A stretch of 64,000 nt of DNA. Origin: Marsupella aquatica (taxonomy: Eukaryota; Plantae; Marchantiophyta). Below the pieces are notes generated by a model that saw nothing but the letters and a program-made list of their open reading frames with translations, was not told the DNA's origin and ran no database searches. Location: the NCBI GenBank assembly GCA_973895155.1, contig OZ316893.1:23706015-23770014 (forward strand). Reading direction: 5' to 3'. Position numbers and translations under genes: made by a program. This document shows positions 16,341 to 61,889 of the stretch, piece by piece (the stretch's first letter is position 1; the number at the start of each line of letters is the position of its first letter).

Positions 16341-16342
<2 letters not shown>

Positions 16343-16386: not shown

Positions 16387-16388
<2 letters not shown>

Positions 16389-32400: not shown

Positions 32401-33770
32401 AATATATGAATGTTGCAACATTCTAGCTTTCGATCAGAGGGGGAAGGTTGGAAAGGATAATAATGGTGAAGATTGCACTGAACTTGAAACTGAATGTTCA
32501 GCATCAGATTCGGACATGCATGTTCAATCGGCCAATTCTTAAATCGATATGGTTGCGTTTACTCTAATGTTTGAAGAGGAAAGATAGTCTTAGAACCCTA
32601 AAATAGTAAGTGGAAAGTGGGGGAAAAAACCAACTCCTTGAAACATGATAACTTGCAAACGATGTGTCAGTAGGTGTGCCAGGTGACAATAGGGTTTCTA
32701 TATATGCTTGTGTGGTTTGTTTTCCTAGGTCATTTAGGTGACTCACTTACCATATCAATTGCTCTAGCTATTGCGTTGGGTTTGCTGCATGGTTAATTGT
32801 CTACTTCTATGTTAACTTTCCAGGGCCGGGCACTATGTTCTTCCTCATCCAACTATGTGAGATCATAGTAATGTAAGTTTACTCCCTGTGCACCTGTTTG
32901 ACCTTGTCGTAACTTCTTTTGGAGTTTGAAGATTTCTATTTAGTTGTTGCTTTGAGATCAAGGTCTACCATATATATATACCTCCTTTTACGTACATCCA
33001 CTTCTACTTCTACATACTTCCTTAATTGTACGTGCTCAATCTGCTGGGCCTCAGGTGCCATCGTCAGGCATTGCAGGTTGCTTTCCGCCAAATGGTCTGC
33101 AGCTCTTTCTCTGAAGGGTTCCATGAGGTGTTTTGATGAACTACTAGGACCAAATGTTCAGTGTATTTTTGGTAGACACAAGGAAGATCTGCAAGGTTAG
33201 GAGTTTGAAAGAGGGGAATATAGGGGGTAAGTAGGGAAATTAACCCCAACGTACCTCATGCTCCCCGCCCCCTTACTATTGGGGGTAATTTCCAGAAGAT
33301 GAGTTGGGAATTCATTCCCCTCTTATCAAAGCGATTCATGGTAAGGTATTTGTCCCATATTTAGTAGGGAACCAAATCTCCTTGTAGTGGACGGGCTGCT
33401 ATGCTTGTAAATTACCTATGTCCCTAGGGTAATCATTCGGTGTGTCTTGCAAGTGCATAACCTAAACCCTAAACACACACAAAAGAACACAAGAAAGAAT
33501 ACCAAAGAAACAGTGGACATGAGAAACAGTGGACATGATTCAAAGATGAAGTGTTCAATTCATAATGCTCCCGCAGGAGGCTCGAACAGGTACATATGTG
33601 GAAAGGAAAGACCCACTCAGGCTCTGTCCTCCTAGTCTCATCGTTGTCCCGCTGCACTAAAATCACAACGGGAGGAAACGAGAGTGGCACTGACAAGTAA
33701 ACGAACAGTAAGAGTGTCACTGCCTAACTGACTCAAGCACCGAAGAGAACCTTAGCTAAAACTCATCTAG

Positions 33771-36102
33771 CTACTCTGATGCATTGAACCTCTGCTGCCA
33801 ATTCTCTCCCAGTATGAACTCCAGATTTTGTTCCATGTTATCTTTTTTCCCGGTTGCACAGCCATACATGATGTCCCTGATCATCACTTGTTTTTTGTTC
33901 TGCACAAAACATGCAACATGCGTACAATTAGAGACCACATATATGGAATTTGTAATTCATCATTACTAGTGAGTGCGTGCAGGAATTGTTAGGCAAAGCA
34001 CGCGAACTGAAATACCCCAATAATACCCCATACACAGAGTGACTTTATTCACCTTGCAGTCCACGCAAGCACTTCTAATCTTACCTGCAGCTCCAAAATC
34101 TTCAACTCAATCGAATCTTCGGCGATAAACCTGACGACTTTCACCGACCTTGTTTGCCCTATACGATGTGACCGATCGACGGCCTGGTCCTCTACCGTGG
34201 GATTCCACCACCCGTCTACCATAAGAACATGTGTAGCCTCAGTGATGTTGAGTCCTGTTTTCGTTGCCATCAAGGACAAGAGGATAATGCTGATCTGCAT
34301 GAAATGAGTAGAAACAGTTTAATTAGAATATGAAGAGTTTACCCTTTGAACAAATACAAACACCGATCTGCACGGATAATGACGGTTGTACCTCTGGGGT
34401 CGTCTTGAAATCATTCAAGGCTTGTTCTCTGACATTGGAATTCATTCCTCCATCAATCCTTGTGAACTTTAGACCAGCCTTCAGAATGTGTGGCTCAAGC
34501 ATGTCGAGACATGAAGTCCATTGTGAGAAAACAAGAGCCTTCTGCCTGGGCACAAAGCTTTCGCTGCTGCCCTGTCCTGTAGTGTCCAGCGGAATCGACT
34601 TCAGGTATTCCAAGACTGCATCAAATTTTGGAGAAGGTGGGTGTCGGACATCATATTCTCTTCGCGCCTTCCCTTTTGACTCCGCACCACCATTCACTAG
34701 CCTCAAATCAGCTGGCCTGTATAGGACCTGGGCTGTCACGTATTTTGAACATTTTGCCGATTTGCAGGTTCCAGTTTCCCGGTCTATTGCACAAATGCCA
34801 CAGTATACATGGCCACAGCCAGAAATCTGAAATGGACTTCCAATCAAGCCCCCCTGCACAATCCAACCATTAAAGTGAGTGCATGCAGAAATTGTTAGGC
34901 AAAGCACGTTAACTGAAATACCTCAATCATACCCCAATAATACCCCAATCATACCCCATACACAGAGTGACTGTACTCACCTTGCAGTCCACGCAAGCAC
35001 TTCCAATCTTCAATTGCTGAAACTCTGACACGAGTCGGGCTCGTTGAGGCTCACTAAGGGGCGTTCTTTGCACTTTGTTCCCGATCTCCTCTTCGCGAAT
35101 TTTACATAAGGAAGGAAGTTTCGGGTGCACTGCAAATTGTCGCAACCGGAGCAGAACGCTCAACACATTCGATAAGGCACCTCTTTCGGCATCACGGAAT
35201 TCCTACAACATTACAGGCACATTAATTGCCATCGAACAGACACCTTCAAGGGATCAAATTGAACTCTCATACGTCTTCAACATTGGGGATTATTAAGAGC
35301 CTTACATACCTTGTATAACTCCTTACTCTTTTCCTCCTGATCAAAATAAGCGTTTCGTTCTTGTTGTGTTCTCCATTCAACAATTTGCACCTCGATCATC
35401 TTAGGGGGCAGTGGGAGTATGCCTGCATGTAAGCACAGTGGCAGGGTAAATGCACAATTGATAAAGAAATCAGGCTTGGGATTAAACAAAGTGAACTCTA
35501 CCATGATATATGCATGCACGCTTACTTTTGTCTCTCCTGAGCGCAATCGCAACCAAGTTTTTCGAGAGGATGCCATTCGCTATCTTTGGCCTTGTCTTCA
35601 GCAGCTTCTTTAACTGCGAGAATTCCTTCCACTCTCCTAAAGGATAATACCTCAGAAAACTGAAGTAAGGAAACAGATCAGAAGCCTCGTTCTGTATGGG
35701 TGTACCGCTTAGGCACCACCTCCTCTCTGCCTTGAGACAACGCGAGGCCTTGAAATTTTGACTAGTTTTATTTTTCATGACATGACACTCATCCAGGACT
35801 ACTCTAAGCCAACTAATCTTAAACAGTGGACCTGCAAGTCTAGGTTTTTTTACAGGTCTCTTCATACTCCCTTTTGGCACGCTGGACGTCTTTGGAGCAA
35901 TGGGAGACTCCCCTATCATGATTGAGTACGTAGTGACAACCACGTCATGGCTTGAAATAAAGTTGATGTCTTTATTCCTCTTGTTGTGGTAGAGGAGGAC
36001 CTTCACTTTTGCTATCTTGGAGGTCCTTGCAGCTATTTCTTGGCCCCATTGAATCACCACGCTGGCTGGACAAACAACTAGAGTTGGCCCCGGGGTCCTC
36101 AC
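33771..36102 (-). pseudogene. SNF2-family helicase, RAD5/RAD16-like with inserted RING: 3' exons (motifs Ia-VI)
   Basis: TLVVCPASV (Ia), DVVVTTYS, WLRVVLDECHVMKN (II), WCLSGTPIQN (III), LLRLRQFAVHP, RING-like CVDC...CGHVYCGIC, KALVFSQWTSCLD (IV), GLNITEA (V), EDQAVDRSHRIGQ (VI). GT-AG introns. Last exon 33900-33771. Confidence 0.9.
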
Positions 36103-36799
36103 TTATTTCCTTCCGACCCATCACGCGCAACTAAGTATAGGGTTTTTTAATTCGATTCCGCGGAAGACTTAAGAAGTTTTGTTGAAGAACTTTAGGGGTA
36201 TAAAAATAAATTGTGCAACTTAGAAGTTTGGTAGGGATGGGTAAAAACTCAATTCTTCAATATAAGTTGTACGTTTAAGATAGGGTATGCTGGGAAAGAA
36301 AATATACTAGTGACACGCGTCAACCTTTAATTGGTCCACGTGGCACTACCTTGCATAAGCATGGTTTAGGGGCAACATGTGGGTTTCATAGAGTTTTGAG
36401 GGGAAAACCCAGGGGAAAATTCAAATTGTTTGTGTGAGCGGGAGGTGGACAGGGAGGGGGGGAGAGCAAGGGTTAGGGTAGCCACTCGAGTGTCACTTAG
36501 GGCCGTCGATCCTGGCTAGAGCCGTTTGGGTGAAATCGTGGGGCCATACATTTGGTCGCTCGGGTCCATGGAAGGACCGATTCTTGTTATAGACTAGTTG
36601 TCGTAGCCGTCCAGCACCAAGTTTAGGGTAAAATTGGGCAGCCATCCATCCATCCATTTGTTGGGCCATCCATCGGCAGTTTGCGATGGCTGGTTAGGGA
36701 ACATTCGAATGCGCTTGTGAAGGAAACTTTTGCAGGGTGAGTTGGGGATCAGGGGCTGGGTGTTGCCTCGACACTTTTACAAAGGAAAAGCTTTGAAGC

Positions 36800-37335
36800 G
36801 GGGGCTGCGATGCAAGGATTGCAATGCTGATTGATGGATTGACTGAGGCGCTGCGCTGCTGCAATGTTGATCGATTGAGCCACTACTGATCGATTGAGGC
36901 TTGAGGTGTTGCACTACTGTGATTGAGGTGCTGTGATTGAGGCATGAGGTGTTGCGCTGCTGTGATTGAGGTGCTGCGATTGAGGCACGAGGTGCTGTGC
37001 TGCTGTGATTGAGGTGCTGCGATAGAGGCTTGAGGTGTTGCGCTACGATTGAGGCTTGATGAGGTGCTGCGCTGCAATTGAGGCTTGAGGTGCTGTGCTG
37101 AAATTGAGGCTGGAGGTGCTACGCTGTGACTGCTGTGGCGATTGTGGCTTGAGGTGTTGTGCTGCGATTGCTGCTATGATTGAGGCACTACGATTGAGGC
37201 GCTGATTGGGAAGGGTTGTGATTGGGGGAGAGTTTGGAAGGAGTTGCTGCTATGATTTGGCGAGGCTATTGATTGGGCAAGTTTGGACCGGGCATTGCTG
37301 CCTGCATTGCTGCCTACATTGTTGCCTACGTTGCT
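36800..37335. repeat. Degenerate short tandem repeats (gattgaggtgctgc; ttgctgcctrca)
   Basis: Directly visible. Confidence 0.8.
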
Positions 37336-38341
37336 GCCTCCATTGCTACTATCATACTGTGATTGGGTGTTCTGAGTTGCGAGCTGCATTGTGGGCTGCA
37401 ATAGAGAGTTCAAGGTGAACCAAGGCTGTGCACGAGTGCTCATTGTGAGCTGATCAAGCTTGGTTGGGTGTGCTTCATCTGCTACAGCTGCTTTTGGTGA
37501 AGTTCGATCTCTATCTCAATCTTGGTGCTTTCGAGTTGCAAGATAATTGTGTTGTAACTTTTTCCTTCGTTGTCTAGCTCCATTTGGACTTGTCAAGGTC
37601 TATCAAATCTGTTGTTTGTCGATCTATCTTTCAGCTTTAATTTAGTTGCTGCCTTTTCGCCCCACTTTAAAGCTTAAAAGCGGCTGCTGTCCAACAGGAA
37701 AGCTCATCGATCTCCAGCTTACTCCTGATAGAGTAGGCGTAGCACCTTTAGTCTATCAATGTAGTAGACTTATCTATGTGAACGATACCGAGGATCCAGT
37801 GTCAGCAGTCTTCAATCTTCAGTCAGCTTCTGTGTAGCTAGCAGTTGGGCAGCCAGGTCTCGCTTCATTGCTTCCTCTCGATGCTCACTAGCTCCATCCA
37901 TAGAAGTCCTTGGCAGAAGCATCCTCGGTTAGCAGCATGCACCCATCTTGGCTCTGTCTCTTCAGTTTCAAGTAGCTCCAATGTATCAACATAATGCCAA
38001 ATAATTACAGTAGACAGGCCCAATCAAATTATTATCAGTTATGTCAATTCAACTTATAAATATGCACATTGGATAAACCTCAGATCCTGCCTCAGTTGTC
38101 TTAGATTCTCGCTCAGATTAGAAATTTGTTGTTGTCGAAGTCACTTGAGGTTGGAGAACTTGTTGCTGGAGTTCAGTCTGCTGTCGAAGTCACTTGAGGC
38201 TGTCTACTAAGTCTCAAACAATGTTGAATACTGAGTACTCTTGGAAGCTTTGTAATGACTGCTCTGCTTATTAGTTTGTTTTATGAATGGTGAATTTGAT
38301 TTGCTGTTGTGATCCTGTGATTCTGACATTGTGTTGTGCAG

Positions 38342-39612
38342 TTTGTCAAAAAAGATTATAGTGCAGGTTCTCAAGGAGCTGTCTAAAGTCTATAAATTGG
38401 AACCAGTATTTGCCAAGGTATGCTAAATTCTAGTGAGCTCAGCTTGAATTTCATTCAGATTCTTCTTTTGTTTTTTATCTTATTGGATGTTTCATGGTAG
38501 AGGTTCAATTGCCTTTCCTCCTTTCTCTATTTAGTCTCCTATATATCTAAGCAAGTTTGTGCTCTACCAAGGACTCATTTCCACCAAGAATGAACTTGGT
38601 CGGAGGTTATCTCTTTGAAATCAGTCAGGTTTTTGATAAATTAGTACATGCTCTCAACTGTTCTTGCAGGATGGGTTGGTTTCCTGATTGGTTCAGGGCA
38701 TCGTGAAGGCATCTAAGAAGCTTCAGCAATATACCACAGTTCACATCCAAAAAGTTGTGAAAGGAGCAGACCTCAAACAACATTTGCTACATCTCTTGCT
38801 TGATAAGGCATTAAAGGTATGCTTATGTTAAGTATGTGTTGTTTGATCAATAACTACCAAGTTAATGTTGACTACAGAGGGGCTGAAAACGGATTCTAAG
38901 TGAATGTTCTGTTGTGCAGAGGTAAACTCACTATCTAGCAAGCTGAGATGGCTTCTGATGTGCCAAGGATTGATATATTTTCCCATAAGGAGCACCACCG
39001 CATGGATCCCCCTTGTTGTTTCTTTTGTGATGAGACAAATGATGTGGTATTTTGTGATGGGCCTTGTAGTAGACATTTTCACTTTGTTGGTGGAAAAGGT
39101 ATGCAGGGGCCCATTTGCACTCCTGTCACATTGCCAGAGAACAATGACTGGAGGGCACCTTGGGTTTGTCAATTGTGTGCTGCCGGCAGAGCTAGATGCT
39201 TTGCTTGTGGACTCATTGGAAGATTTGAACATCCCACTGCACAGGAATCTCTTGTGCTCCATTGTGCCCACCCGGATTGCTTTTCTCATTATCACCCTGG
39301 CTGCCTTAGGGTGTTACTTATGGTTGGGGCACTGCCTTAGAGGTCTCATCCAACCAATCCAAAAACCCTAATATGCCCAAGGCATTTTTGTGAGTACTGT
39401 AAAGTCTACAAGGATGGGATTAAGGACTTTGTACAGTGTCGCAGGTGCCCTCGAAGTTGGTGTCATGATGAGACCTCTGAGGGAGTGAAACACCTCAGGA
39501 GGTGTGTCAAGGGCAGGGACCATTGGGATGTGGAAGGGTGGCGTTTCATTTACTGTCATAGGCATGCAATATTTGAGGGCAACTTGGTCCCTATTCAGCC
39601 TCATACGTCTTA
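38342..39612 (+). pseudogene. EDM2-like / NSD-type composite PHD-finger gene (exons ~38342-38417, ~38670-38816, ~38920-39612), one in-frame stop
   Basis: CFFCDETNDVVFCDGPCSRHFH..WVCQLC..CFACG..CAHPDCFSHYHPGC, then reading through TAG 39338-39340: LICPRHFCEYC..VQCRRCPRSW..FIYCHRHAIFEGNLVPIQPH. This is colinear with the EDM2 PHD cassette as recalled. Confidence 0.75.
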
Positions 39613-39999
39613 GAGTTTGTGAAATTGATAGTACAAAGCAAACTTCTTCTTTTGGCTAATCACATGTGAACAATAACCAACAAGAATTGTTTGTGTTGGT
39701 CTTTAAATGTGGTTATGAAAAGGTTTTTTGAGCAGTCTCTAATTTGATTCATATTGTGTTGTTTACTGTGCTGGATGGCAGGTTCATTATGTATGGCAGG
39801 TTCAATATGTGTATGTGATTGTATTTAGAACCCTTGATGCTTTAACTTGAACGAATTGATTGCAATGGCTACCCAGTTTGTAAAACTATTGCACAAAAAA
39901 AGGGATGTGGTGACTGATGGGAAAGATGAAGAACCTATAGCTGTGTTGGCCTTCAAAGAAGGACAAACCTTAGCTGATTTTTGAAGTCAAATTCCTGAA

Positions 40000-42900
40000 T
40001 TGGTTGATTTTGATTTTGATTTCTGGGATTATAGGCTTCCTGGTCGCATGAAGGTCAACAGTGAGAAAATGACTGAGTTGTCTGAATTGGATGGGAAAGT
40101 TGCTGTCATTGAACAAATTGGATCCCTACCTTCTGCTAGGACAGGGTTCCCATCAGTTTCTGCTGCTGTCACCCAATTGGCTGCAGTGGACTCTTCCCAG
40201 GGTGAACAGCTTCAAGAAGCTCCCCCTGTGAGAGCTTCTTTTGAGTCTATTTTGATGTCTAAGGTGGCTATCAAAGTCTGGAATGATGAATTTACAAGAT
40301 TGGAGAAGTGGATTCACAAGAGTGGTTATAAAAATCATAATTGGAGAGTTCAAACATGGGATGAAGGACAGGATGTGTGAGGCCATCTGGAATGTCTTGA
40401 GTGTAGAGTGGTCTATGGGAGGGCAGATAATTCCCAAGATAAGAAGTCAATTGCTAATTTGTTCAGCAATTTTAAGACCAAGCACCTTGCCTTTGCTAAA
40501 CACAAAGACAATTACTGTAGGAGAAGGGGTATTGCTATGACTGGGGTGAAGTCCTCTGATCTTGCACAGAAGCTTGAGTTTGATTATGAGGGTGCCATAG
40601 CAACTGGCCTAGAGATAGTCCAGAATCTGAATGCTGAGTGTGGAGGTGATGATGAGTTATTTCATGTGCCCCCTGTGCCTGGTCCAGCCAATAATGCAAA
40701 CAAGTGGTTCCTTTATAAGGTTCGTTGCAAAGTCTGTGGGGCAATCATGGATTTGGTTTGTAAGAAAGGGACTTTGGATCACAACCTGAGGACACACTTG
40801 GTCAGTCGAGGTCACCTGGATGTAGTTGAAGCCAGAGAGAATACTGCTGAACTTGCATTGAGATCTGGAAAGAGGGGCAGACCAAGGAAGCCAGATGAGA
40901 GGGATCAACATCCTTCACATAATTCAATCTTAAAATTCTTCAAGGAGGATGCTTCCAATGCAAGCAGCAGCTCTGGCACAGGTGGGTCTAGAGACATTGA
41001 TGTGGGCTTAAGTTTGCTTTGTTGGGGAATATGGGATGAATATGTAGAGTGGAAGAATGTGAAGTATGCTGTGAAGGGTATCTTGCATGATCAGCAGGGA
41101 GGACATGTCTGGAATTTGGATGCTGCAATCTCTGTTCATGTCTACAATCCTAGCACAAATTCTACTGTACATATAGAAGGACTATTTAGGCATGAAGATT
41201 GTTGTAGGTTGTCCTTGTATGGTGGGGGTTTTCTGAACCTAACTTGCAGTAGATGTCATGCTATAACACTAGAAGATGACTTTCGTGGACGGGTGCACAG
41301 GGAAGCGGAGGCTTTAGCAAAGAGAGGGGAAAGAAGCACACAGGGTGGTTTGAATGCACGTTATTTGACACGTCCAGAGTTGAGTACACAAATGCGTCAC
41401 TTGAATGTCAAGAGAAGAAAGGAGAGATGGTTGTTGGCACTACAGACTCAGAAAGTGTGTGCCCTGAGTACTAGGAAGAGAAAATTGCAAGAATTGTTAG
41501 GAGTAGCTGCAGACAGAAAAGATTTGAGACTTTTTTTAAGGAGTATTGTCAATGGTCATAGGAATGGTGCATTTGGTGGAAAAGAAGGTCTTTGGGATTT
41601 CTTGAAGGATATAGGTAGAAATTTGGAGAGAAGTGCAAGGGGGTTTCGCTACAGTCAAAAAACAAAAGCCATTGCTCAGGCTATGTTTCAATATGGAGGC
41701 CGGCAGGTGGCACATGTTTTTGCAAGAAACTTATCTGGGCCAAGCCTGAAGACACTAAAACGAGACAGAGCAAAATTTGTGCAATTTTGTGCTGGGATTA
41801 GGCTAGAAACATTCAAGGAGGTGGCTCGAATTCTGTCTGCTACAAAGGAGATGTTGGGGATTGTAGGGGATGTGCCTGTCATGCTTGCAGAGGATGAAAC
41901 CAGGATCAAGGAAAGCCCACGGTAAGTCAATTACAGTAGCACATAATGATGTGATTGGAGTTTTAGGGTTTAGGACTATTTCTGATGCATGTAGTTTTGA
42001 ACCAATTCTTTGAATCTGACTTAGTTCTCATTGGGCTCTGTGCAGGTGGGAGGCCAAATATGACACTCTCATTGGTTTCTGTGGCCAGAAGGATGGGCAC
42101 ACCTGTGAATTTGGATTAGAAATTCTTGTAGGTGATGGTGAGGATGGCTATAACAAGATTGTTAATACATTTGAGGATTTTAACAAGGGCATGTATGCTA
42201 GAGTTGTCATTGTGAATCCATTGCATGTTGGAATGCCAAAGTTAGCCCTCTGTGCTATTTCAACATGTAACAAATTCAAGGCAGAATGGGTTCGGGAGCA
42301 TTGGGTGCAATTGAAGGAATCTTGGGATGTGCATTGCAGAGACTCTATAGGTCCTTTGCTTGGGCATGCTAGTGATGGTGATGCAAGACGCAGAAAATTG
42401 ATGTTGGAAGACTACAGAGGAGCAAATGGCACTTACCCTAGATTTTCTGTAGGGTGGGAAGGATGGCCTTACTCAGTTGCCATATTGCCTAATGGGGACC
42501 TCTATGGTTTTGGTGATCAAGACCAACCTCATAATGGGAAAAAGTTGATTAACCCACTAGATCGAGTGTCCTCAATAATGGCACTTGGAGACCAACATGC
42601 TTCTCTGTTTCATGTTTGTAATGTATACAATCATTATCCAATTCATCAACATGGATTGAATTGGGATGATGTGAACAGATCTGACCGTCAGAATTGGACT
42701 GGTCCTCAGAGGATAGCATCAGACAAGGTGCGTGAATGTTTAACAGATCTACATGCAAGAACTGATATGTTGTATGAACGAAGCTTGGGGACCGAGTTGT
42801 ATTTGCAAATCTGTGCAGATTATATTGACATTTTCTACTCCCAGAGACATGATCTGAGGACAAGAGTCAAACTGGCAGGCAAAGTTTCTTGGTTCTTTCG

Positions 42901-43459
42901 ACTGTGGAGGTTGTGGTTAAGGTATGGTGATCATGCTGTAGGTGGAAATGTTGCTTCACATACAGAGAAAAATATGATTTCAATCCAAGCTTTTCATGAT
43001 GTTAATATGTCTTGCCAATTCATTGTGTTGCTTGTATGTGCATTTCGTGATAAATTTTCTCACTTGTGTATTCCATTTCATGAGTTGGGTTCTGATTGTT
43101 GTGAGATCTTTTTCAGCAAGGTAGGTGGAATGAGTGGCCATGAGAGGAATAATGATTTTGGCTCTTTGTTGGATAGTGTTGTTGGGTTGAATCGTCTTGC
43201 TAGATTAGAATGTGGACCAGAGGGCTTGAAAGTAGCTCGATCACATAAGAAGCAAGATCATGTGTGGGCCAAGCTTCATCCTTTACTTGAAGGTGAAGAT
43301 GCACCTAATCTTTTTGATTACTCTGAAGTGCAAACTAATGAGTTGGTGGTTGCAGCCTTGAAAGAAGGATTTGAAGAAGCAAAAGAGTGCCTTAGAAGGT
43401 TGCAAATGTCTCCCCGAAGTGATCTGCCAGCATCAAGAAAAATTCCCTCGGATCCATAG
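40000..43459 (+). pseudogene. P-superfamily-like DDE transposase with N-terminal zinc fingers; intron 41922-42045; premature stop 40378-40380
   Basis: CLEC..HL..KH and CKVC..HL...H fingers, AT-hook-like KRGRPRK. Catalytic-type motifs AEDET, HASDGD, DQPHNGKK (DxxH), DRQNW and SDCCEIFFS. Splicing restores SPR|WEAKYDTLIGFCG. Confidence 0.8.
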
Positions 43460-43514
43460 TCATGGTAGTGGTTTAAGTAGGTACAGGGGATAGGTTAGGG
43501 GAATAGGTTAGGGG

Positions 43515-43574
43515 GTGGCATATTTGGATACTTGAGCTTCTTGCTCAATCAGGGGTTCAATTCCCCTTTGCCAC
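43515..43574 (+). other. tRNA-like fold lacking a full D-arm
   Basis: Acceptor-like gtggca/tgccac; stem ttgag/ctcaa with 7-nt loop cttcttg; T-arm agggg-ttcaatt-cccct. Confidence 0.4.
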
Positions 43575-44026
43575 ATACACTCATTTAGATTGTTAACTCA
43601 ATTTCCTTTTGGTGCACCTCCCTTTCACATGAGACAAGCATAGGAGATTTCAAATATGAACAACTCATATTGTATATTGCTGAAGCTTCTACTAGAATTG
43701 AGATTCTTAGTGGAAGCATCAACACTATATACTATAAGTTTTTTATGATGAGACATCATGGATGCCAAAGGAGCATAGGAGGGTTTGACTAAGACTCGAA
43801 TAATCTTGACAAACACTCAAAAAAGGTGCGCATTTGAAAGAACTTTTCTTTTCTTAGTAAGGTATGTTTAAATGAAGGCAAAACTTTACTTAACCTTTTT
43901 TAGGGGTCAAATTTTAAGGATTTGGAATTCTTCTAAGTATGATAAGGAGGGAGAAAAAAATATTTTACTTAATAAGTTAGGGTCACAAGGGACCAAAACG
44001 TCGAGGGTGGTATGGGGACCTCTGTA

Positions 44027-46500
44027 TACTGAGGCCCCTGAGGAGTTGGCCCACACTTATGAGGGCGATTCGCGAGAAATAGCGCTATGACATGCATGGT
44101 TTTCCCCATTCCCTAAAAAAATCCAAGCCAAGAAACGGTCAGGGGCCCACTCACTTGCAGACAAGGTGCGCGCGTACCCCTAACATACTCCAAAAATACC
44201 CCCAAAGTATCCCGCTGAATGAAAATAATGAGTGCAACTTCGGCTTAATTTGGGGGCTTTTGTACCTGGTCATCCGCCAACATCCCACCAATTGGAGAGC
44301 TTTTTCCGGATTTGCGTTCCAACATCCATGCAAGACCAATCCGTTGGTGTGGATATAGAGCTGTAGTCATTGTACCAGGTGGAGGGCATGCCTCCTCTGT
44401 CAAGTGAGACCCTTGGATATCAATCTGCGGATCCCGCTCACAGCCAAGTTAGATATGCTTGAACATTGTTTCTGAAAAAACAGTAATCACACAACAAAGG
44501 AAAAAAATCGCTAACCTTTCCACTCTCTGTGGCACACTCTTCCCAGTGAATGTCTTGTTCTGAATGCTCGTCATCCTCCACTTCATCTTCTTCTTCTTCC
44601 TCTACCTCTTCCTCTTCCTCCACTTCGATAGCCCTCCTCTTCGCTGGTGAGTGACTGCCACTCGGATTAGAGTCCTCTCGCCCTCTCTTTGAAGCACGAG
44701 GCAAATTTGGTTGTCGTGAAATGTGACTCGTCCTAGCCTCCCATCCCAGACTCTTAGTTGGAACATGAAATAGAACAGAAATCGGAGGTGACCCTGGTAC
44801 TTCTGATGCAATTGCACCCGACGATTTGTCCTCCTCTGTAGCTGAGACCTCTACTTTTGATGTTGGTGCAGCATTTGGTGCCTCTCCTTCTAAAAGTGAC
44901 ATCTCTTCTTCTGATGTCGGTACCTCTGCCAGTACTGGTGGTGCGGCTGCCTGTAACTCTACCAAAACTGGTGAGTCACCTCCACTCGACATAGACTCCT
45001 CTCGCTGTATCTTTGAAGTAGGATAATGAATTGGGAAAGTACCTACTTCTGCTGGTGCTGCTACTGGTACCTCTACTATAGCTGGAACACCAGGATAATA
45101 AATTGGGAAAGTACTTGCTTCTGCTGGTGCTGCTGCTGGTACCTCTACTATAGCTGGAACACCAGAAACTGGCGGTAACTCTGAAATTGGGCTACGTTGT
45201 GATGCCTCTGCATCATAACCTGCATGTACCCTGGCACCAAGACCTACCAGAACCTCACAACATCTCTCGTCACCTCCACTCTCACCTTCTCCACTCGATG
45301 TCTCACTGCCAACTTGTTCTGAATGCAACCCAACCTGCCTTTCCAATTCTAATATGCGGACTCTCTGTCTGTCATTTTCTTTCATCAAATCGAGGACCAA
45401 TTTTTTATGATTCTCCACTGCTTCTCGTAGCATGTCCGATTTTTCTGCAAGATCAACCTCTAGCGCACGTATGTGCTGTGATAGAACACGCATGCACTCT
45501 GGCATAGAGGGCGGCGATTTGTGCTCACCCTGAGGACATTTCTGTTCATCCCTGGAGAATTGGGGCGCAACCTCCAATGGCTGCCCCTCACCGTCAGACG
45601 CACCATCCCCTTCCTCATCCTCTCGTGAGCCATCTTCTCCTTCCTCGTCCTCTCGTGATCCGTCATCCCCTTCCTCGTCCTCCTGTGAGCCACTATCCCC
45701 ATCCTTGTCCTCTTCTGAGCCAGCCTCCCCTTCCTCGTCCTCTTGTGAGCCATTTTCCCCTTTCTCCTTGTCGTCCTCCTCATGATCATCTTCGTGTTGT
45801 TCGACCATAAGCTCCTCCAGCGAATACCCGTAGTGTACAAGAATCTGCGTTATAGTAGTGCCACAGTAGCAAGGAAGTCGTTTGTCTACGACACCATTCT
45901 TCGATAGGTGTGACTTTAACCTAAGGATCTCACTCGTCAGATTATCGTACACCAAATGTGCCCAATCAGGCTTCACCACGGGAGTTTCAGCTCCTCTAAA
46001 ACGATCACGTACCCTAATCGTATCCCACCAATACGCCCAGTATACCCACATGTCTTTTGAGGTGACTTGAGTGGGTTTGCTCTTGCCTGAGAGCAATTCA
46101 GAAATCGCCCTGATTATCCCACACCACTGCATATATGGCGCAGTGATTTTGTCTAGACTGTATGGGTTGCCTTTCGTCTTGGCAGAAAACATGGAATTTA
46201 GTTGACCTTGGACCAACCCAGGTTTAAATTGGGCCCATTCTCCAGACGGAAAAGCAAATGCAGCTTGCAATACCTCTCTGTTGAATGTGTGAGTTGCACC
46301 CTGGAATGACACACAGTTTCAACCTTGATCATACCCTACTGCAAACTCCTTTACAGCAGGAATTGCAACTCTGGGCCAGTTGAGTTCAAACATGGAACCA
46401 AACCAGCTTTTCTAGCTAAATTATGGTCTGCAGGGGCCATCCCTAGATAATGCCGTATTACCCTCCCCGAGCATGACTTCCAAATCGTCTCCGTCACGAC
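44027..46500 (-). pseudogene. 5' exons of the SNF2 gene: TE-type N-terminal domain, acidic/coiled-coil region, Q-motif and motif I
   Basis: ORF 46312-44516, then exon 44424-44266 (LYPHQRIGLAWML...GGMLADDQ) and exon 44112-44027 (GMGKTMHVIAL). Both are bounded by AG/GT. Confidence 0.82.
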
Positions 46501-47246
46501 TGTACAAACAAAGCAGGCCTTAGTTGCGCCATTCTAACAATCGATCAATATACTTCATGCGGAATTAAGAACCAAAGGAGTTGAGTGAAAGAGGGGTACA
46601 TACGATCTGTGATATCCTCGTCGCTCTGCATCAACAATGCAACTGGCGCTGGACGATCATGTCGACGAACCATACTTTCACCAATCCTCCAACGTCACCC
46701 CGCGCTCGTCGATACTTGCTTCCGTCGCTAACACCCCAAGTGTTATCCAATGGCAGACTTGTCAGCCACAAAGATCTACGAAACCTACACAATCAAAGAC
46801 TGGAGCTCAGGAGCTTGCACCATTGCCCAAAGCTTATAAGGAATTCCTCATAGGGCATTCATGTGCGCAGTGGCATGCATCATTTAGTCACTGCAGTTTC
46901 AGTAGTAGATCTCACAACAAAGATTCTGTCTCCGATCGGTGGCACCGCCCTTTCACTACCCCAACGTACATTTTATCACGTTCCCAAGTAACCTGGTAAT
47001 ACCCATCCATTATGTCACGTCCGACCTAGAATCCAATGATATTCGTGACCCGTGCCGTCCCCGATCATACCCCGTGCGAAGCACCATAGCGTCACCATCA
47101 CAGGCTCATGTCTGACCTGCATCTCACACATCCTACGGTTTGCATCCTGGTCAGTATTCAGTTATTGACAAAACGGCGCCTCTCAAGTGTTGTCATATCC
47201 CATAGTATCTTTCTTTTTGTCGTACTTGGGACTTTCCATGGTATTA

Positions 47247-50200
47247 CTATACGGTATTCCACCGTACAGGGATACCATGGTGAAGTCCAATTGCACGAAA
47301 ATCAAGCCTCAACGCAACTAATCTTTGAAAGGTGATGTGTTCATCAATTTGTGACGCTGCCTTGTAGATTGGGCAACTTGATCGAGAACCCTGTACAGAC
47401 AACCAGCTCACACCAACCTTCCCGAGGTCCTTCTCATTATCATTTGCATTGTGCGATTCTGCCATGTCATCCCCTCCCTCCTCCTCCTCCTCCTCGTCAG
47501 AAGCACCGTCCACTCCTACATCCCCCGCTTGCATTTCCGTTGCCGCATCGCGCCTGGGAAGGAGGACTTCCCTTACAACACACAGGTCAGGGACGGAAAG
47601 TGAGTCCGCTATTGCAATCATTATGTCCCCTACCTCTGGGAAAGGAGGGCAGTTTGCAATTGTGGTAGGGAGTTCCCGTACTAAAGTATCTCCAATCTCC
47701 AAGGCTACAACCTCCCTCCCGCCTCTTCGAATTGGGAAGCACTTGTGTAGAATTCTTGACATAGGCCTACAATTGTTGCCATGTGCGTGATATACTTTTG
47801 GTTCCAAAAGAGTAAACAGGGAATACTCATCTCGTTCCCAAGACAGTAAATTTCGCCGAGGATCCTGTGTATACTGTTGTTTATACCAATCCGCCTCAAA
47901 GAATATGTCCATGTGGCCATCGAATTCGTGCATGAAAATCTTTTGGAGTACTGCTTTCCAGTTTTGAGGATGTGAAGCATCTGTACTCCCATCTACCAGT
48001 ACAACAACGTGATCGCCAGGCCTGTACACTTCAGCTCTCCACACAGCTGATCACAATGGAGTGCAAGATTCACTAATTTCGTGGTCCTCACTGATGTTGA
48101 ATACTCCAACATCTGTCCAATGCTGCTTCAATGACATCCTGGCGGACAGCCCTAGTTTCTTTGTCAGCTTCCTATTTGAGCCTATGCCAACCCCTTTGCT
48201 CAACAACATGTGCTTGCAACCATATGACTCCACAGAGGATATCATACTATCCCACAATTCCATCGCTAGAATTTGACTTGAAACTATTGGCACCAAATTC
48301 CCGTGTCAGTGTGGGCATTCAGATGGTGGTACAGTGACTCTACACCTGTGCTCCTTACGATGCTCCGCAGGTACACGCAGGGATGCATGAACTTTCTCCA
48401 AAGCCCTCTGATGAGGGAAAAGTCCATCGTCATCTTCCCAAATGTACGACGATATTTTTGTGAAAAAGCGTCGTGCAAAATGCGGGGCAAAATGAAGAGA
48501 ATAAGTGACTTCCTGGTCCTTCTGATTTGTTCTGGTCCGTCCATAGTCTGATACCATCCTCTCGAAGCGGTAGCACCAATAAACATAGTGTGGGCCATGT
48601 CGTTCTATCCCATCAAATATCTCTCCGCTCCCTAAAAATTGGGATCAAAACACATTGGGATTAGAACATCACCTCAGTGCAATGATGGATCGACCAACAA
48701 TGAATACCCACTGTCATCATGGTCATGTAGCAAGTGTAAACAAAATGACTCACCAGCAACATGCTCTAGAATTGCTCCATTTGGGCCCCAAGCCTCTTCT
48801 GAGCGAACTCTCCAAGAAGCCAGTAGAGACCTGCCTTTTTTCAATGTGGCTGTAGTCCAACCCTCTTGTCTACTTCTGATATAAAAGAGGTGTGCAATCT
48901 CTACCAAAAGAATCCCAAGCGTCCCAAGGTCAGAGTGGACACTAATGTCCATCTGTTGGAGGATATGAGGCAGACAATACAATATGAATCGCGTGAAATC
49001 TTCAGCCTTGAAGTATCCCAATCTTTCAAAAGGTTGTTTAGGCCACCTTCCATCAAAACCTCTCAGTTTCCTAGTAGTAACCTCCTCCAGAGCATCTTCA
49101 AACTGTTTTTGATGTTGACGGGGAACACTCGAAACTAGAAGCTAGCAGTATTTCTTGAAAAGGCACAAGGCAAGGATATGCATTGTATCATACACCAGAT
49201 CCTTGCTCAAACAAAATCCAGTAAGCTCATGTAGTCGCCAAGCCCTGGTCATGTTTGAAATCCCGCACTCCCTGCTTATCTTCATCCTCTCTGCAGTTGT
49301 TCGTGCCCTGGTCATGTTCCTGGCCGCCTCCCTCACCTCTTCAATTTTCCGTGTAGGTGGTGGATATCTCATCTGCATCCTATTGTTGTCATACATAGCC
49401 CTTCCCAGAAAACCTCGGGGTTGTGATTGGTCAGTCTCCTTTCGAGGATGATCAAACTTGCACTTCATCCATCGAGTGCTCATTTTACAATTCCTACAAG
49501 CGGAATAACCTGTAACATTCCAGCCCCCAAATTTACATTGTGCGGGATGATCTCCAGTGAAAACTGCTAACAGTGCTCGTAGCACACACCTGGAGTCATT
49601 CGGTACATTATCCTCTTCAGCCAATAATTCCACAGGGTAATTGTAATCCACCTCTATCCCATCCACAAACAACTCCTCCAGTTCTCTTATGAATGGTTCT
49701 AAGAAAGCATCCAAGCATTTCAGCTTTTTTTTTCCTATGTCGTCGTCATCACATGGCAGGATAAAAAGAACAGGGATAGGTGGAATTTTGGTTTGAGACC
49801 CGGCGCTTAAAACTTGGACCTCTACAGTCCAGGTGCTTTTGTGGGCAGTCTTGGCAGACTGAAATCCATCCCAGTGTGCCATGAGTGCAATATTTTGGGG
49901 ATCACCCTGCATGCGGTGGGTCACACTAGTTAGACAAAAGTTACTCTATCATAACCCATAAATACCCTAAAAATACCCAGACCATACCCTGGTCATACAA
50001 AAGTGCGCAACAACAGTAACGCAAGAAGAAATCACTAACCTTTGCAAATTGTTTCGGGGCCGTGACTCGAGATCCGCAATCTGAGCATTGGAAGTCGTAT
50101 TGTTTGCTGACATTATCCCAGTTGGCAGTATCCAACAACTCAGGACATTTATTTGGTGTTGTTGAATAGCAAGCATAACAGTTTCGGCATAACACGGGAA

Positions 50201-51312
50201 TCTCAAACTGTGTGCCAGTGTCCCAAAAGTAGGATAGCTCGGAAGCATGGTAGCCGTCCCACCATTCCTTGTACACAGGTCTGGGCATGGAATCCTTCTT
50301 AAACCACTTATCTTTGTCCCTCCACATTGCCTGGAACTCATGACAAACAGATCGACTGCTACATAACTTCCGCAACATGGGACCAATGAGGAAATATTCA
50401 AACCGGAGCATCTCCTTGCGAGCCGTGCCGCAACCATCCAATGGGCAACGTTCCGAACAACGCAAACAATCCCTGGCTAGATGCCACTTCGTCCCTGCGA
50501 TTGAACAACTGCACTTCAATCCAGTTCGGACATTGTAGTCATCTTGGTGCGACGGCGGTAGGACTACGGGAGCATGCCAGTTTGGCTTCTGTCCAATACA
50601 CATTCTCCACCGCTGCGTTTTTGGCATACCATATGCCTCAAACGTTCCACACAAACCCTTGAATGATGACAATGCATCAATTCCATGGCGTCCTCCGTCC
50701 CATGTCACACCAGCGTGCCTTAGGAGTGCGCCCAGTCCTACATTTGCCATGTCGGATGGAGGGTCGGGTGAAGGTGTCAAATTTGTAGATGGGGGAATCT
50801 GAATCTTCCCAAATAGCATTTTCAAAATGCTATCCTGCAATGCTTGAGGCATTTTAGCCTCGTCAAGCATTGATTGTAATCTCCAAGTCTGTCGATAAAT
50901 TGCTTTGTCCATGATCAGTATTCTTCGAGGCATTATGTGGATACCATACTGCATGGGAAGCGTCTGACCAATCCCATCAACATATATCCAGGTCCTGCAA
51001 ATTGTTTCTTCCAACGTCATCATTCCCGTCTCCTCCTGTAAGTGCCCTGTACAACAAAGTTGGGGCCATATATCTGTGTTCTTGTCAGGACATTTGAACA
51101 CCTAAGAAGCTGGCAGAATGACCATCTTGATGCGATAGGCCATGGCCATCCGGATGCCCACGGTCCACTAAAAACTTTGCAGGAATGACCCTGCCTGTCT
51201 TGTCATAGTTTGCATGTCGTCTTCGATTCCTTGGGCTCACAAAATCATACCCATCCCGTAAGCGCGAACATTTGTACTGACAGGTGCATCGTTCCTTCGG
51301 TTTTGGCGTCAT
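47247..51312 (-). pseudogene. EnSpm/CACTA-type DDE transposase with C-terminal BAH-like domain; multi-exon, several in-frame stops
   Basis: CTCQYKC..RRRH, EWWDG, HWDGFQ, FTGDHPAQCK..GYSACRNC, YDTMHIL, FKAEDF, HGPHYVYWCYRFER, then VYRPGDHVVV..WKAVLQKIF..FFEADWY. In-frame stops at 49142, 48306 and 48051. Confidence 0.88.
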
Positions 51313-53149
51313 GGTGCACACTGCCGTTCCTGTGTACAAAATATTGCAACGAAGTCGATTCAGAATTCCTCAGGAGGTGGATGTGCGCGGTGGGATTGTC
51401 GGAAGGATGATTGGAGAAGTTCATTATTATGTTGAATACTGTGCATAATTAGGTGGGGCCCACGGCATTCATGACTCCAGGAAAGCATTCAAACGTCCTT
51501 GTTGCATATGAGCGAATGTGCTACAGTAGGTGGGAAACCTTATCGTTGACCCTGCAAGCCCGGGGCCACTGCCTCTAATCCCTCTAAGGCAGTCACTCAC
51601 CATGTTGAATTCATGCTTATGCTATTCAAATTTGAAGTTCATGTGTATGGTTTTCTTTCTTGGGCAGCTTACTCCGGGAGTTTATTGACATTTTTGGTTC
51701 AAAGTGCATTTTTTTATTATTGTTGGGACATTGAAATTGTTGTTGGGCCCTGTCTAGGTCTTTATTTATTTTGTATCCGACCCATCCTTTCTTACAATAT
51801 GGTCTATGTAAATAGAATTGTCATCCAAGCTTTTTAATGGCATTCCAGTTCACCAAATGCATACCAGCTGGTTATAGGGGCTGGCCACAACATCAGCCAT
51901 CTCAAATGTCACAAGATTAGTGTCACACATACTAATTATTGTGTGACCCTGAAATACCCTGTTGCCTCAATCTTACGTGCTCATGTCAATTTGTTTTGGG
52001 GTTAAGGACCCCCAATGTACCATTTGAAAATAGGTCATTGGTTGATACCCCCTTCTTAAATGAAGATAGAGTAATGGCGCAATATATTGAAGTTTAAATA
52101 AGTAATGTAGACTATGGAATATTCCTCTAGGGATATAGTGTAGCCTAATATTCCCTTTGTTAATTCATTTTAGTACTAGTTTGTTTACCTTCATGAAGTC
52201 TATAAGCTACCAGAGTTTTAGACAAATTAACACAGGAAGAACAATAATTTTCTAGTACTAATTTACAAAAGGATCTAATGTGATAGGATAAGTAATGTTT
52301 TTACATGCATAACAAGGCATTTTTAATGCATCAAACGATATACATGGGGGGGTTTGTTCTCAGGGGGTTCACTTAATGTAGCAAAAGAGGGAGGGCCGAG
52401 GGATTCTACTTTGATTTTGATTTTGATTTTATAAATACGTACATAATCCGCTTTTCAATTCGTCAAACTTTAATAAAGTTTGAAATGTAATTGAGCTTCA
52501 TTTGTAAAATGTTAAGTTACACACATCAATTCAGAGTCTATCTGCTTGTCACCAAAAGTAATCTAACTTACTTGAATATAGAATGGCATGTATTTACTCT
52601 CGATCACTTCTTAATTATATAGTGTCACACTTGTTAATGATGGTCAACCTTCAAAATCCTTAGATTACGGATTATTAATCCTTAAATTACCCTTCCATTG
52701 ACATATCATACTAGCTAGCCTTCATTACCTGTTCTTTGCACAAACATGAATAGAGGATAGTACGTATAAATCATGACAAATGGCATACATGCTTATTATT
52801 TGACATACTAGTCATGAGTTTTCTCATCCACATGATCTACCTTGTAGTTGGCGCTTTATAAGTTCTATTGTTAAGGGACTGAGACAATTGGTACCTACCT
52901 AGCTACCTCCCAAGTTCACCTTAGGATCACGGAACTTGTTATACATGCATCTGCGAACATGCATGTTTGATTTAATCACTCTCTCAAAAAGGAATAGGAA
53001 GGTCACAAAACCCACCAATCATTTATTGACATGTGGCAACCAATGAATTGTGTGATGAAAAGTGGGACTTTTTGAATTGTTACCCCCTTACTTCATCCCT
53101 ACTTCTAAGCACTTCCTTACAAATTAATAATGACTGAAACGCCCCATAC

Positions 53150-53615
53150 TTTGGTGCACATGATGTGAACATTTAATTTGTGGAAGTGACCCGCACCCCC
53201 ACCCACCCTGAGCTACCTCCATACTTCATCCTTAAATTAATAACCTTCCACATATGCATGCATGCATATATGTGCGCAAGTCTTAGGGTTTAGGGTTTAG
53301 AGTTAGGGTAATGAATAAAAGGCCCCTTACTTCGATCATTTGCACATGATGTGAACATTTAATTTGTGGAAGTGACCCGCACCCCCACCCACCTTGAGCT
53401 ACCTCCATACTTCATCCTTAAATTAATTAACCTTCCACATATGCATGCATGCATATATGTACGTGCGCAAGTCTTAGGGTTTAGGGTTAGGGTAATGCAT
53501 AAAAGGCCCCTTACTTCGATCATTTGCACATGATGTGAACATTTAATGGGTGGAAGTGACCCCCACCCCCACCCACCCTGAGCTACCTCCATGTTTCATC
53601 CTTAAATTAATTAAT
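53150..53615. repeat. ~185-bp tandem repeat (about 2.5 units) containing telomere-like tagggtttagggtt
   Basis: tgcacatgatgtgaacatttaat...gaagtgaccc..acccccacccacc recurs at ~53155, ~53341 and ~53525. Confidence 0.88.
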
Positions 53616-54597
53616 ACGCCTGCCTAGCTGTATGTTTGGTCGCGTTTCACAGGACTTGGCAAGGAAATGATAATCATTTCCAATCTTATTTTTATGTTTC
53701 TCATATTTATGTAATAATATATACTAAGTGCGTGATGACCCCCCCCCCCCCCTAAAGAAAAGAAAATAGAGTTTTAAAAAGCAAAATGACCCCTGCCTCA
53801 CCCAATGCTTTTGTGTCCCTCCTCTTCAAAAACCCTTATAACTTCACCTTAAAAGCAGGAAAATGTGTTAAAAACTCTCCCCTTGTAAGTCATCATGATG
53901 TGACATAAAGTGTGCCAATGGTCCATATAACTGGCAATATAAGGGCCTAGATCCAACATTTGAAACATGTGGCACATGGCACTGACAAAGTATTGTAGAC
54001 ATTATTATGGGCCCTATTTTAGGCCCCTCATCACAAGTTCAGCCATATAGCAACCTCTATAAGATTCAATGTATGTAAGGAAAGCTCCCACATGTTCAGC
54101 CAATGCCTTCAGAAAATGAAAACTCAGATTTATGTTAGGGGAAGGGTGAGAAATTTAGAACGGAAGGAGACAAAGTCTTTTTTTATTTGATTTATTTTGC
54201 CGCATATTTACTCCATTAAAACGTGCCCAAGTACACAAAGTGTCCGCCATGTCTCCCAAGAGAAAAACTCCGCGTCTCTCTAAAATGAACGTCTCCCAAA
54301 GCTCCGCTTCCGTAGAGTCAACGTCCCCGTAAAATCAACGTCTCCCAAAACTCGGCCCTAAACTCCAGGTCTCCCTTCTGGATCCTCTACTTGCATTCAC
54401 TTTGTGCCCACGATAATTTACTTATCTAGTGACCCCTCTGCACAATTTGTCGAGTGTTCTGCAGTCCGGCTTGTCATTTGATTCGCAACCATTGCAGATC
54501 GGTATTCGTCCCTTCCTGAGTAGTGCTTGCGCCCGGCTGAGTGCCTGCCCTTCGCCACTATTGTTTGGATTTCTGCTGGGCGGCTCTTTTCAGAGAC

Positions 54598-55302
54598 ATG
54601 GCCACACTTAAAGATGTCGTTGGCTGCTGCAATGCTGGAGAAACGAGGACCTTCCCATTGATGAGGGTTTTTGTGGTCAATTTTGATGCTCCAATCGATT
54701 TTCCGCGGAAGTTTCTATACCATGGATGCACTCGCTTCGTGACACCTGGGTGGATGTGTAATCGCACTGTTGAAGGGTCAAGTCGATGTCCCCATAATTC
54801 GGTTGCTGCTGGGACCTGGACAGAAAGGTATCGTTTTGAGGTGTTCCTGGTTGACTCTACTATCGGGCCACACTTCCCTCCAGTGCGAGCTAAGATTTTT
54901 GATGCAGCGACTGATCTCATAGGGATGCCTCCGCAGGATTTTAGCGAGAAGGAAGACTTTGTCCAGTTTGCTACTGTCCATAGAGCTACAGCAAAGATGG
55001 AATGTGTGGACGTAGTGATCCGCTGCAAAGACGGTGAGGCCATTATTAATTCCTTGTCACCTGTAAGCAATGACGACTGTGAGATCTTGCATTCTGTGGT
55101 GCCTACTTCTGTCACTCCACGGAAGACAAAGTTGAAGACCTACAGTGTACCTTCAAGTTATCATACTGCACGAGGGAGGCATACAGCAGAATCTTCAAGA
55201 TCATCTATTAATGCTTCAGACCCGGCCACAGCGTCGCAGCTTAGTTCTGTTAGATGTAGATTGCAGGACCTGCTTGATAGTTTGGATGCAACTCATATCT
55301 GA
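54598..55302 (+). CDS. RPA1 (RPA70) C-terminal-like OB-fold/zinc-ribbon protein
   Basis: FLYHGC..CNRTV..RCPH..RYRFEVFLVDST..AKIFDAATDLIG matches the RPA1 DBD-C pattern Y.AC..C.KKV..C..RY.L...D.TG...F..A..L.G. Intact ORF; ATG follows a ttttcag acceptor. Confidence 0.75.
   Translation: MATLKDVVGCCNAGETRTFPLMRVFVVNFDAPIDFPRKFLYHGCTRFVTPGWMCNRTVEGSSRCPHNSVAAGTWTERYRFEVFLVDSTIGPHFPPVRAKIFDAATDLIGMPPQDFSEKEDFVQFATVHRATAKMECVDVVIRCKDGEAIINSLSPVSNDDCEILHSVVPTSVTPRKTKLKTYSVPSSYHTARGRHTAESSRSSINASDPATASQLSSVRCRLQDLLDSLDATHI

Positions 55303-61858: not shown

Positions 61859-61889
<31 letters not shown>

Follow-up and report, generated by a model that had tools for sequence, protein, structure and literature searches.

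The closest described counterparts of the system reported here are the anti-silencing proteins VANC and KIU of VANDAL elements, which are Mutator-like elements of Arabidopsis, and the two-gene layout of En/Spm transposons. VANC21 is described as targeting arrays of a short motif that share one orientation and lie in introns, intergenic and terminal DNA (PMC5735166), KIU proteins are reported to consist of VANC fused to a captured Ulp1 enzyme (PMC13317346), and VANC is called dicot-specific (PMC13547354). The latter source also gives a head-to-tail arrangement of transposase and second gene as an EnSpm layout, with Arabidopsis SPM2/5/6/9 as examples, and states that TnpA-like domains are confined to flowering plants (PMC13547354). 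Here, we analyzed a window of 64,000 nucleotides from Marsupella aquatica (Marchantiophyta; assembly GCA_973895155.1, contig OZ316893.1, forward-strand positions 23,706,015 to 23,770,014); all positions below count from its first base. The window holds a CACTA/EnSpm-type element whose second gene likely joins an N-terminal domain (N-domain), with a moderately predicted VANC21 fold, to an SNF2-RING ATPase of the FRG type.

The ATPase gene belongs, as its second gene, to a DNA transposon of the CACTA/EnSpm type that is present in many copies (Table 1). The outer inverted ends pair at 18 of 21 bases beside a 3-bp duplication (AGA/AGA), pairing of at least 17/21 occurred in 0 of 60 shuffles, and the right end at 63313 is the sole match of at least 17/21 to the left 21 bases on the opposite strand of 33301-64000. 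Both ends read CACAA, neither CACTA nor CACTG, with the CAC start retained, and a high-depth contig of sequencing run X2 begins exactly at 33177, the first base of CACAAGG. Read depth covers 32600-52500, where it is even and high over the transposase and the SNF2 gene in three of four runs (X1, X2 and X3); in X1, the flank piece 32693-33143 has a depth of 39 and the listed element pieces of 329-477. Between 60 and 70% of the words of the 3' part of the SNF2 gene are present in four of six public sequencing runs. These data point to a family of about ten or more copies, depth not being itself a copy number. The extent from 52501 to 63313 rests on the end pair, the ATACCC motif treated below and a sister arm. 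This sister arm, at window positions 1-4166, is the right arm of a related element (92% identity to 61263-63303), truncated 10 bp short of its end and joined to a piece of a DUF4218 transposase.

Table 1. Coordinates of the CACTA/EnSpm-type element, its genes, its motif arrays and the element nested within it
Feature	Position	Strand	Details
Whole CACTA/EnSpm-type element	33177..63313		30,137 bp including the nested insert, ~22.2 kb without it; end pair, AGA on both flanks
Left terminal inverted repeat, begins CACAAGG	33177..33207	+	AGA before (33174-33176)
Right terminal inverted repeat	63282..63313	-	AGA after (63314-63316)
Right subterminal tandem repeat	62307..62962	+	158 bp x 4.2, rich in ATACCC
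CACTA transposase gene	47247..51312	-	3 exons (51312-50040, 49906-48754, 48631-47247); PF02992
Second gene, likely exon 1	46604..46673	-	ATG 46673; phase-1 intron follows
Second gene, large exon	44516..46499	-	N-domain ~46499-45812, acidic tract (52% D/E), coiled coil, Pro-rich and acidic linker
Second gene, exon carrying the Q motif and the first half of motif I (LYPHQ ... ADDQ)	44266..44424	-
Second gene, 5' part of motif I-III exon (GMGKT), severed by nested element	44051..44112	-
Second gene, 3' part of motif I-III exon (Ia, DECH, SGTP)	35526..36088	-	ends RRDK, phase 1; PF00176 E 2.7e-32
Second gene, two exons into RING (CVDC)	34981..35422	-	35422-35310, 35202-34981
Second gene, exon with remainder of RING (CGH..C..C..CKSAKC) and motif IV	34392..34853	-
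Second gene, motifs V-VI exon and exon with C-terminus and stop	33771..34294	-	34294-34085 and 33899-33771; PF00271 E 1.9e-9
Dispersed ATACCC copies, often 11-bp tandem units	33900..52050	+	Introns and intergenic DNA
Nested element	36089..44042	+	7,954 bp, 13-bp imperfect inverted ends (10/13), 8-bp target duplication
Plus-strand reading frames inside end pair	54541..61750	+	54599-55302 and multi-exon gene from ~57930

The transposase gene adjoins the second gene upstream and on the same strand (head-to-tail) and matches Transposase_21 (PF02992) with an E-value of 1.6e-8 and 34.5 bits against a cut-off of 28.6. In the window copy it is broken by four in-frame stops and a 4-base frameshift; the four bases at 50982 are missing from the contigs of all four runs examined. 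The original prediction for this stretch, made by a model from the letters alone, rightly took the helicase gene to be element-borne, but overlooked both the transposase at 51312-47247 and the outer ends. The element resembles En/Spm in its Transposase_21 gene, its CAC-starting ends, its 3-bp duplication, its head-to-tail second gene and, at the right end, its subterminal repeats, but differs in the CACAA ends, in a second gene without TnpA match and in its length of ~22 kb with further genes. The left subterminal region has a 16-bp doublet at 33506 only, whereas the right one has 4.2 copies of a 158-bp repeat.

The second gene was modelled with nine exons and eight introns of 91-185 bp, all of them GT-AG (8/8), with phases that join 1,324 codons into one frame. 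According to this splice model, which was inferred from DNA alone, the product is likely a fused protein of 1,324 residues composed of the N-domain, an acidic/coiled-coil linker and a complete SNF2-RING ATPase. The 91-bp intron between 44516 and 44424 has a strong donor (AAG/GTTAGC), a branch site (CTAAC) and a CAG acceptor, and its phases match. Motifs Q and I (LYPHQ..ADDQ/GMGKT) lie at 44424-44051 and motifs Ia-VI at 36088-34085, with the RING between motifs III and IV; searched as single exons, the gene matches SNF2-rel_dom (E 2.7e-32) and Helicase_C (E 1.9e-9 and 1.9e-6) in Pfam. The complete set of helicase motifs (Q, I-VI) with introns, the separation of Q and I from Ia-VI and the long acidic/coiled-coil exon upstream (46499-44516) had all been predicted correctly. 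The gene had been started at this acidic exon, however, and its likely ATG lies at 46673 in a short exon further upstream.

The gap within the ATPase is due to a nested element. It is bordered by the 8-bp target duplication GAGTTGGC at 36081-88 and 44043-50, and with the insert and one duplication removed, GMGKT...CGPTLVVCP reads through in one exon; the nested element therefore interrupts coding sequence. An intron between motifs I and Ia was dropped as an explanation, as the target duplication accounts for the gap. The prediction had placed a nested element here, between motif I and Ia, but with wrong bounds: excision of 36138-44024 leaves insert bases in the exon, and the duplication marks 36089-44042 as the right cut. 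In X2, a contig with a depth of 265 joins 36080 to 44043, similar to the other listed X2 element pieces (165-251), so that most copies in X2 are free of the insert. The nested element encodes PHD fingers at 38939-39337 (PF22908, E 7.5e-7) and has transposase-like open reading frames (ORFs) at 40381-43456, for which no Pfam match was found; the observed/expected ratio of CpG in its ORF is 0.2. Its 8-bp duplication and a D-x2-H-x2-K motif presumably recall P-like transposases. Depth in X1 is several thousand over 38.6-44 kb and a few hundred over 36.6-38.6 kb, so the nested element may be composite.

Besides the insertion, the window copy of the second gene carries an in-frame stop at 46319-21 and a one-base gap behind 46387, and is therefore not full-length-coding, contrary to the earlier description as full-length. 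Four apparent stops upstream of 46390 were rejected as decay, being read in the wrong frame from the one-base gap. The stop is a sense codon in the majority contigs of X1 and X2 (X3 has no contig depth there), the missing base is present in those of X1, X2 and X3, and with the majority letters no internal stop is left in the frame over the 5' half of the gene. Over 44043-47400, the majority contigs depart from the window copy at 34 of the 3,358 bases, and X1 and X2 agree on all of these 34; the majority contigs also carry two one-base insertions relative to the window copy. The 23 changed codons (9 silent, 14 not) fit the decay of one copy. C-to-T changes in the window copy account for 29 of the 34 and fall on CG 19, on CHG 8 and on CHH 2 times (282, 301 and 1,057 sites, respectively; p 9e-11), a concentration at CG and CHG which suggests that this copy was methylated in the plant-type manner. 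With its insertion, stop, frameshift and methylation-type mutations, the window copy is dead. The family, with an open frame in its majority over the 5' half, is not obviously dead.

The ATPase has the layout of the Rad5/Rad16-like group, with SNF2 motifs Q and I-VI and a RING between the two lobes. It had been classified as RAD5/RAD16 type, but by matches, motif I and exon ends it is closest to FRG/CHR27-28 (Ris1). Among the best 120 of 1,002 longer matches, nearly all that bear a subfamily name are CHR27/CHR28, with two named otherwise (HLTF/RAD5 and TTF2-related), and 96 of these 120 share the ADDQG motif I. CHR27/CHR28 have been placed in the Ris1/FRG subfamily (PMC8171942). The main exon shares its end at RRxK with 30 of 39 single-exon matches and its start at GxGKT with 12 of 14. 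Since both exon ends match plant FRG exons, we infer that an FRG gene of the green lineage was captured at the DNA level, introns included. The RAD5 subfamily is marked by an N-terminal HIRAN domain; the large exon matches neither HIRAN nor any other Pfam family, except for a sub-threshold acidic one.

Over the intact main exon, five of 66 exon-sized matches stand out as relatives, P0138, P0139 and P0140 with 54-59% identity and P0148 and P0153 with 39-40%. They keep the motifs and share with the ATPase a very short motif I-Ia linker. In a tree of 26 rows (LG+G4), in which long branches may join falsely, the six form a clade (support 100/98) beside green-plant FRG, and one protist protein, which we labelled RAD5-like, lies beyond a 97/93 branch. 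The phylogeny that had been suggested thus gave a clade of its own beside green-plant FRG, but in a set without curated RAD16, TTF2 and HLTF; a quick tree held 95 rows, with eight short matches and nine near-duplicates left out. The protein resembles FRG1/FRG2 (CHR27/CHR28, Ris1) in the ADDQG motif I, in the C-x4-C last RING pair found in most of them and in the two shared exon ends. It differs in its identity of 35-38%, the very short motif I-Ia linker, the N-terminus typical of transposable elements (TEs), a worn RING surface and a branch outside the sampled land-plant FRG clade in the best tree, nesting with land-plant FRG not being rejected (approximately unbiased test, p-AU 0.10); long branches weaken this test as they do the tree. 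The RING scores only sub-threshold in Pfam (E 0.022), with all eight zinc ligands present (C-x2-C, C-x-H, C-x2-C, C-x4-C) and with hydrophobic, Pro and Arg positions altered, as judged by eye. These positions form the E2-binding surface, and their alteration makes E3 ligase activity doubtful. Of the E3 ligase that had been predicted, the RING with its eight ligands is there, but the enzymatic role is weak.

A recent host gene copy that the element carries as a functionless rider (passive Pack-type capture) would account for introns that match the host gene structure. We regard this as highly improbable: the search, which did not cover the host's own FRG genes, revealed no near-identical gene, the joined helicase being 35-38% identical to its best full-length matches, the five clade relatives at 39-59% keep their motifs, and the gene is complete and sits in an element with its own transposase. 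As a sign of constraint, the ATPase keeps 140 of 196 columns that are invariant in 14 land-plant FRG proteins, compared with 14 of 122 variable ones. The low identity, the separate clade and the open majority frame support the earlier view of a complete, long-diverged, element-borne SNF2 gene instead of a Pack-type fragment. As judged by its sequence, the gene is real, element-borne and long-maintained.

For the N-domain, 15 unnamed relatives with 33-47% identity were found, several of them followed by acidic and coiled-coil stretches. They are single reading frames of 87-479 residues that stem from gene calls stopping at introns. One relative, L001 from a metagenome stretch, agrees with the second gene in that a short exon, followed by a phase-1 intron, precedes the domain at the corresponding position. 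The N-domain gave no Pfam match at any threshold tried, DUF1985 included, and no PDB sequence match beyond acidic/coiled-coil noise. A locus search confirmed one of 223 metagenome stretches, namely L001, which ends inside the domain; it yielded none in viral and prokaryote contigs, and with the SNF2 profile it returned only generic SNF2 genes (best rows 26-29%).

Structure comparison suggests, as a moderate prediction, that the N-domain has the VANC21 fold. When the whole-domain model of L001 (predicted local distance difference test score 89.6) was compared with 48,161 chains, the VANC21-DNA crystal structure came first with a Z score of 7.6 (root-mean-square deviation 4.3, 199/227 aligned), and the next row had a Z of 2.2. 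Foldseek likewise ranked VANC21 first for this model (TM 0.53, E 0.5), the next listed hits having TM values of at most 0.20. For the 176-residue part from the window itself, VANC21 again came first (Z 3.5 over 154 aligned residues), with unrelated rows within 1 Z, and the window-only model had no Foldseek match in the PDB or viral libraries. VANC21 was thus rank 1 in three of four PDB structure searches, with the best Z below the tool's mark of 8. Atlas features gave Transposase_32 and ATHILA domains at 0.90 with 159-161 shared features, which we take as a lead only; the window-only N-domain had only matches under 0.9. The original view of a plant TE-associated N-terminus agrees with both results. 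VANC and host PMD proteins are reported to share structure (PMC13547354; bioRxiv 10.1101/2024.09.27.615353), and the N-domain resembles the PMD/Transposase_32/ATHILA group in its Atlas features to both Pfam families. It differs in the lack of a Pfam match and in its setting, a CACTA element with an ATPase, the known carriers of that group being described as MULE and Ty3 elements (PMC5418596).

The element also carries a candidate target for such a domain. In the non-coding DNA of its multi-copy part (3,577 bases), ATACCC is the top of 4,096 6-mers (corrected p 5e-12), with 14 copies compared with 0.54 expected from flank and insert, distributed over 7 of 13 non-coding pieces and with 0 on the other strand. 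Non-coding copies make up 14 of 18, and 24 plus-strand copies stand against 1 on the minus strand, with 0 plus copies in the nested insert. The plus:minus ratio is 6:1 in 52501-62100, 11:5 in the terminal repeats and 17:3 in the sister arm, compared with 0:4 in the nested insert and 5:2 in 29 kb of flank. Tandem arrays lie at 34918, 56402 and 58986. The orientation follows the element, including its plus-strand gene region. A role in splicing was rejected, since the copies are oriented with the element rather than with the transcript (few copies). In L001, a related G-rich unit (GGGGTTCAT-type) forms an array upstream of the domain, as seen at this one locus. The last intron of the SNF2 gene (33968-34082) holds a 79% copy of an earlier exon end and motif-bearing intron (34874-35010), a route by which ATACCC could spread between introns. 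Overall, the locus resembles VANDAL VANC/KIU in having an accessory gene with a predicted VANC21 fold and same-orientation arrays of a short motif in introns, intergenic and terminal DNA. It differs in being CACTA-type with inverted ends and not Mutator-like, in carrying an SNF2-RING ATPase and not Ulp1, and in having no DUF1985 match.

The same arrays could serve a TnpA-type transposition helper: the fused protein would bind chiefly in the subterminal repeats, its motor would remove nucleosomes for the transposase at the ends, at the target or at the excision break, and silencing marks would not be involved. The second gene occupies the TnpA position, head-to-tail behind the transposase, ATACCC is densest in the right subterminal 158-bp repeats (11 plus-strand copies in 1.2 kb), and TnpA is modelled as binding DNA and TnpD (PMC13547354). 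The left terminal 594 bp, however, have no ATACCC copy and many copies lie in internal introns, which suits VANC-type targets over end synapsis, and the second gene has no match to the TnpA Pfam family. We therefore consider a helper unlikely.

Given the predicted fold, the complete motor and the arrays, we posit, at roughly an even chance, that the fused VANC-fold/FRG-type SNF2 protein acts in unbroken copies as a sequence-targeted, self-directed chromatin remodeller. The second gene of such copies would yield one protein, with the N-domain exon spliced to the ATPase exons, the predicted VANC21-fold domain would bind the ATACCC arrays of the element, and the FRG-type SNF2 motor joined to it would remodel the chromatin at these arrays. 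This remodelling, probably in the direction of opening rather than closing, would keep the family expressed and mobile. KIU proteins provide a precedent for a VANC-type domain fused to a captured host enzyme.

Several points weigh against a self-directed remodeller. The fold match is moderate (Z below 8, Foldseek E 0.5, sequence identity 4-7%), and the model that scores well represents L001, a relative with 38% identity, instead of the protein encoded in the window. Since host PMD proteins and ORFs of retrotransposons fall into this fold family as well, function is not fixed by fold. ATACCC was first noticed by eye, two of the seven motif-bearing pieces duplicate each other, and only five of ten introns have the motif. 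CpG observed/expected is 0.56-0.65 in the element and 0.60 in the flank, showing no CpG retention as a sign of anti-silencing. As the majority contigs drop rare variants, one single intact copy does not follow from them. No relative carries N-domain and ATPase on one contig and, as a weak piece of evidence, 7,992 scored candidates included no N-domain protein in the size range of 840-2395 residues. With the 91-bp intron left in the transcript, the frame ends 25 codons on, at 44438, and gives an N-domain-only product. Finally, 27 of the 29 C-to-T changes lie at CG/CHG, indicating methylation of the window copy even though the protein could have come from sister copies, and host FRG1/2 act for silencing according to the title of Groth 2014 (cited in PMC7865151), which means that a captured copy could repress.

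Two of these points lead to different products or effects of the same gene. With retention of the 91-bp intron, the N-domain exon alone could encode a VANC-like protein and the SNF2 exons a separate one or an occasional extension. An ATG four codons before LYPHQ, the single frames of the 15 N-domain relatives and the absence of a long fused protein from the scored candidates are in line with such a split. It appears distinctly unlikely to us, as the donor is strong, branch and acceptor are present in matching phase, there is no promoter room between the two parts, and the relatives' short frames derive from gene calls that stop at introns. Alternatively, the protein may restrain its own family by repression, or act as a decoy that poisons the host FRG complex. 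The silencing role of the donor FRG subfamily, whose host members FRG1/2 aid RNA-directed methylation, and the methylation of the window copy are compatible with this, and captured host sequence is described as able to camouflage an element (PMC13317346). Nevertheless, the family has spread recently (1% divergence) with the gene in place, and all ATPase motifs are retained, which would be needless for a mere decoy; we rate self-restraint or decoy as improbable.

If the self-directed remodeller is real, we would tentatively go further and propose, with more doubt than confidence, that an old CACTA lineage independently built a VANC-like anti-silencing system. This would be hard-wired to a captured remodeller from the RNA-directed DNA methylation pathway and would combine a family-specific motif (ATACCC here, the G-rich unit in L001) with ATP-driven stripping or moving of nucleosomes. 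It would represent a programmable remodeller of natural origin and offer direct access to the way in which VANC-fold proteins erase silencing. How the loss of silencing spreads from the VANC-bound motif over the whole element has been described as an open question (PMC10398659). With one chain that unites a VANC21-like predicted fold and an ATP-driven remodeller, this spread would be testable with one point mutant. Motif-targeted accessory systems would then extend from dicot Mutator-like elements to the CACTA superfamily, and a host silencing factor would have been turned to the transposon's use.

Titles and abstract openings of the literature that we searched, which excludes Repbase and subscription journals, name no CACTA-encoded SNF2 protein. 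The accessible text of two surveys (PMC12973397, PMC13317346), one of them restricted to elements of 2-12 kb, has no mention of SNF2 or helicase. A superfamily-2 helicase as such is not foreign to cut-and-paste elements. AcademH of animals and fungi, an element of another superfamily, carries a RecQ-like one and, to our knowledge, no SNF2, RING or VANC-fold domain.

The part of the element beyond the transposase contains further plus-strand frames, for which no Pfam or PDB sequence match was found in 54541-61750. The single reading frame at 54599-55302 shows a Cys pattern and an RY-x-F...IFD stretch, which we take as reminiscent of RPA1 and its zinc-bearing OB fold at the C-terminus. Exon 1 of the multi-exon gene at 57930-61750 is SAM-domain-like by eye, with no Pfam match for the gene, and the sister arm contains its 3' part again, at window positions 1-500. 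Between the divergent genes, a 184-bp tandem repeat (2.5 copies) at 53155-53614 contains telomere-like TTTAGGG units.

Outside the element, the window holds several other features. A 610-codon open frame without Pfam match (8065-9894, minus strand) lies between 98% identical repeats of 764 bp at 6798 and 10078, and an intronless acidic RING-H2 frame occupies 26182-27132 on the minus strand (PF13639, E 3.3e-12). The AT-rich segment at 29229-31705, set between 49-bp inverted repeats of 92% identity, is likely a non-autonomous element. Two segments that are 91% identical (15068-16935 and 23278-25112) each contain a diverged ROP/Rho GTPase frame that lacks introns (PF00071, E 2e-46 and 2.2e-39) and are possibly cargo of another element.

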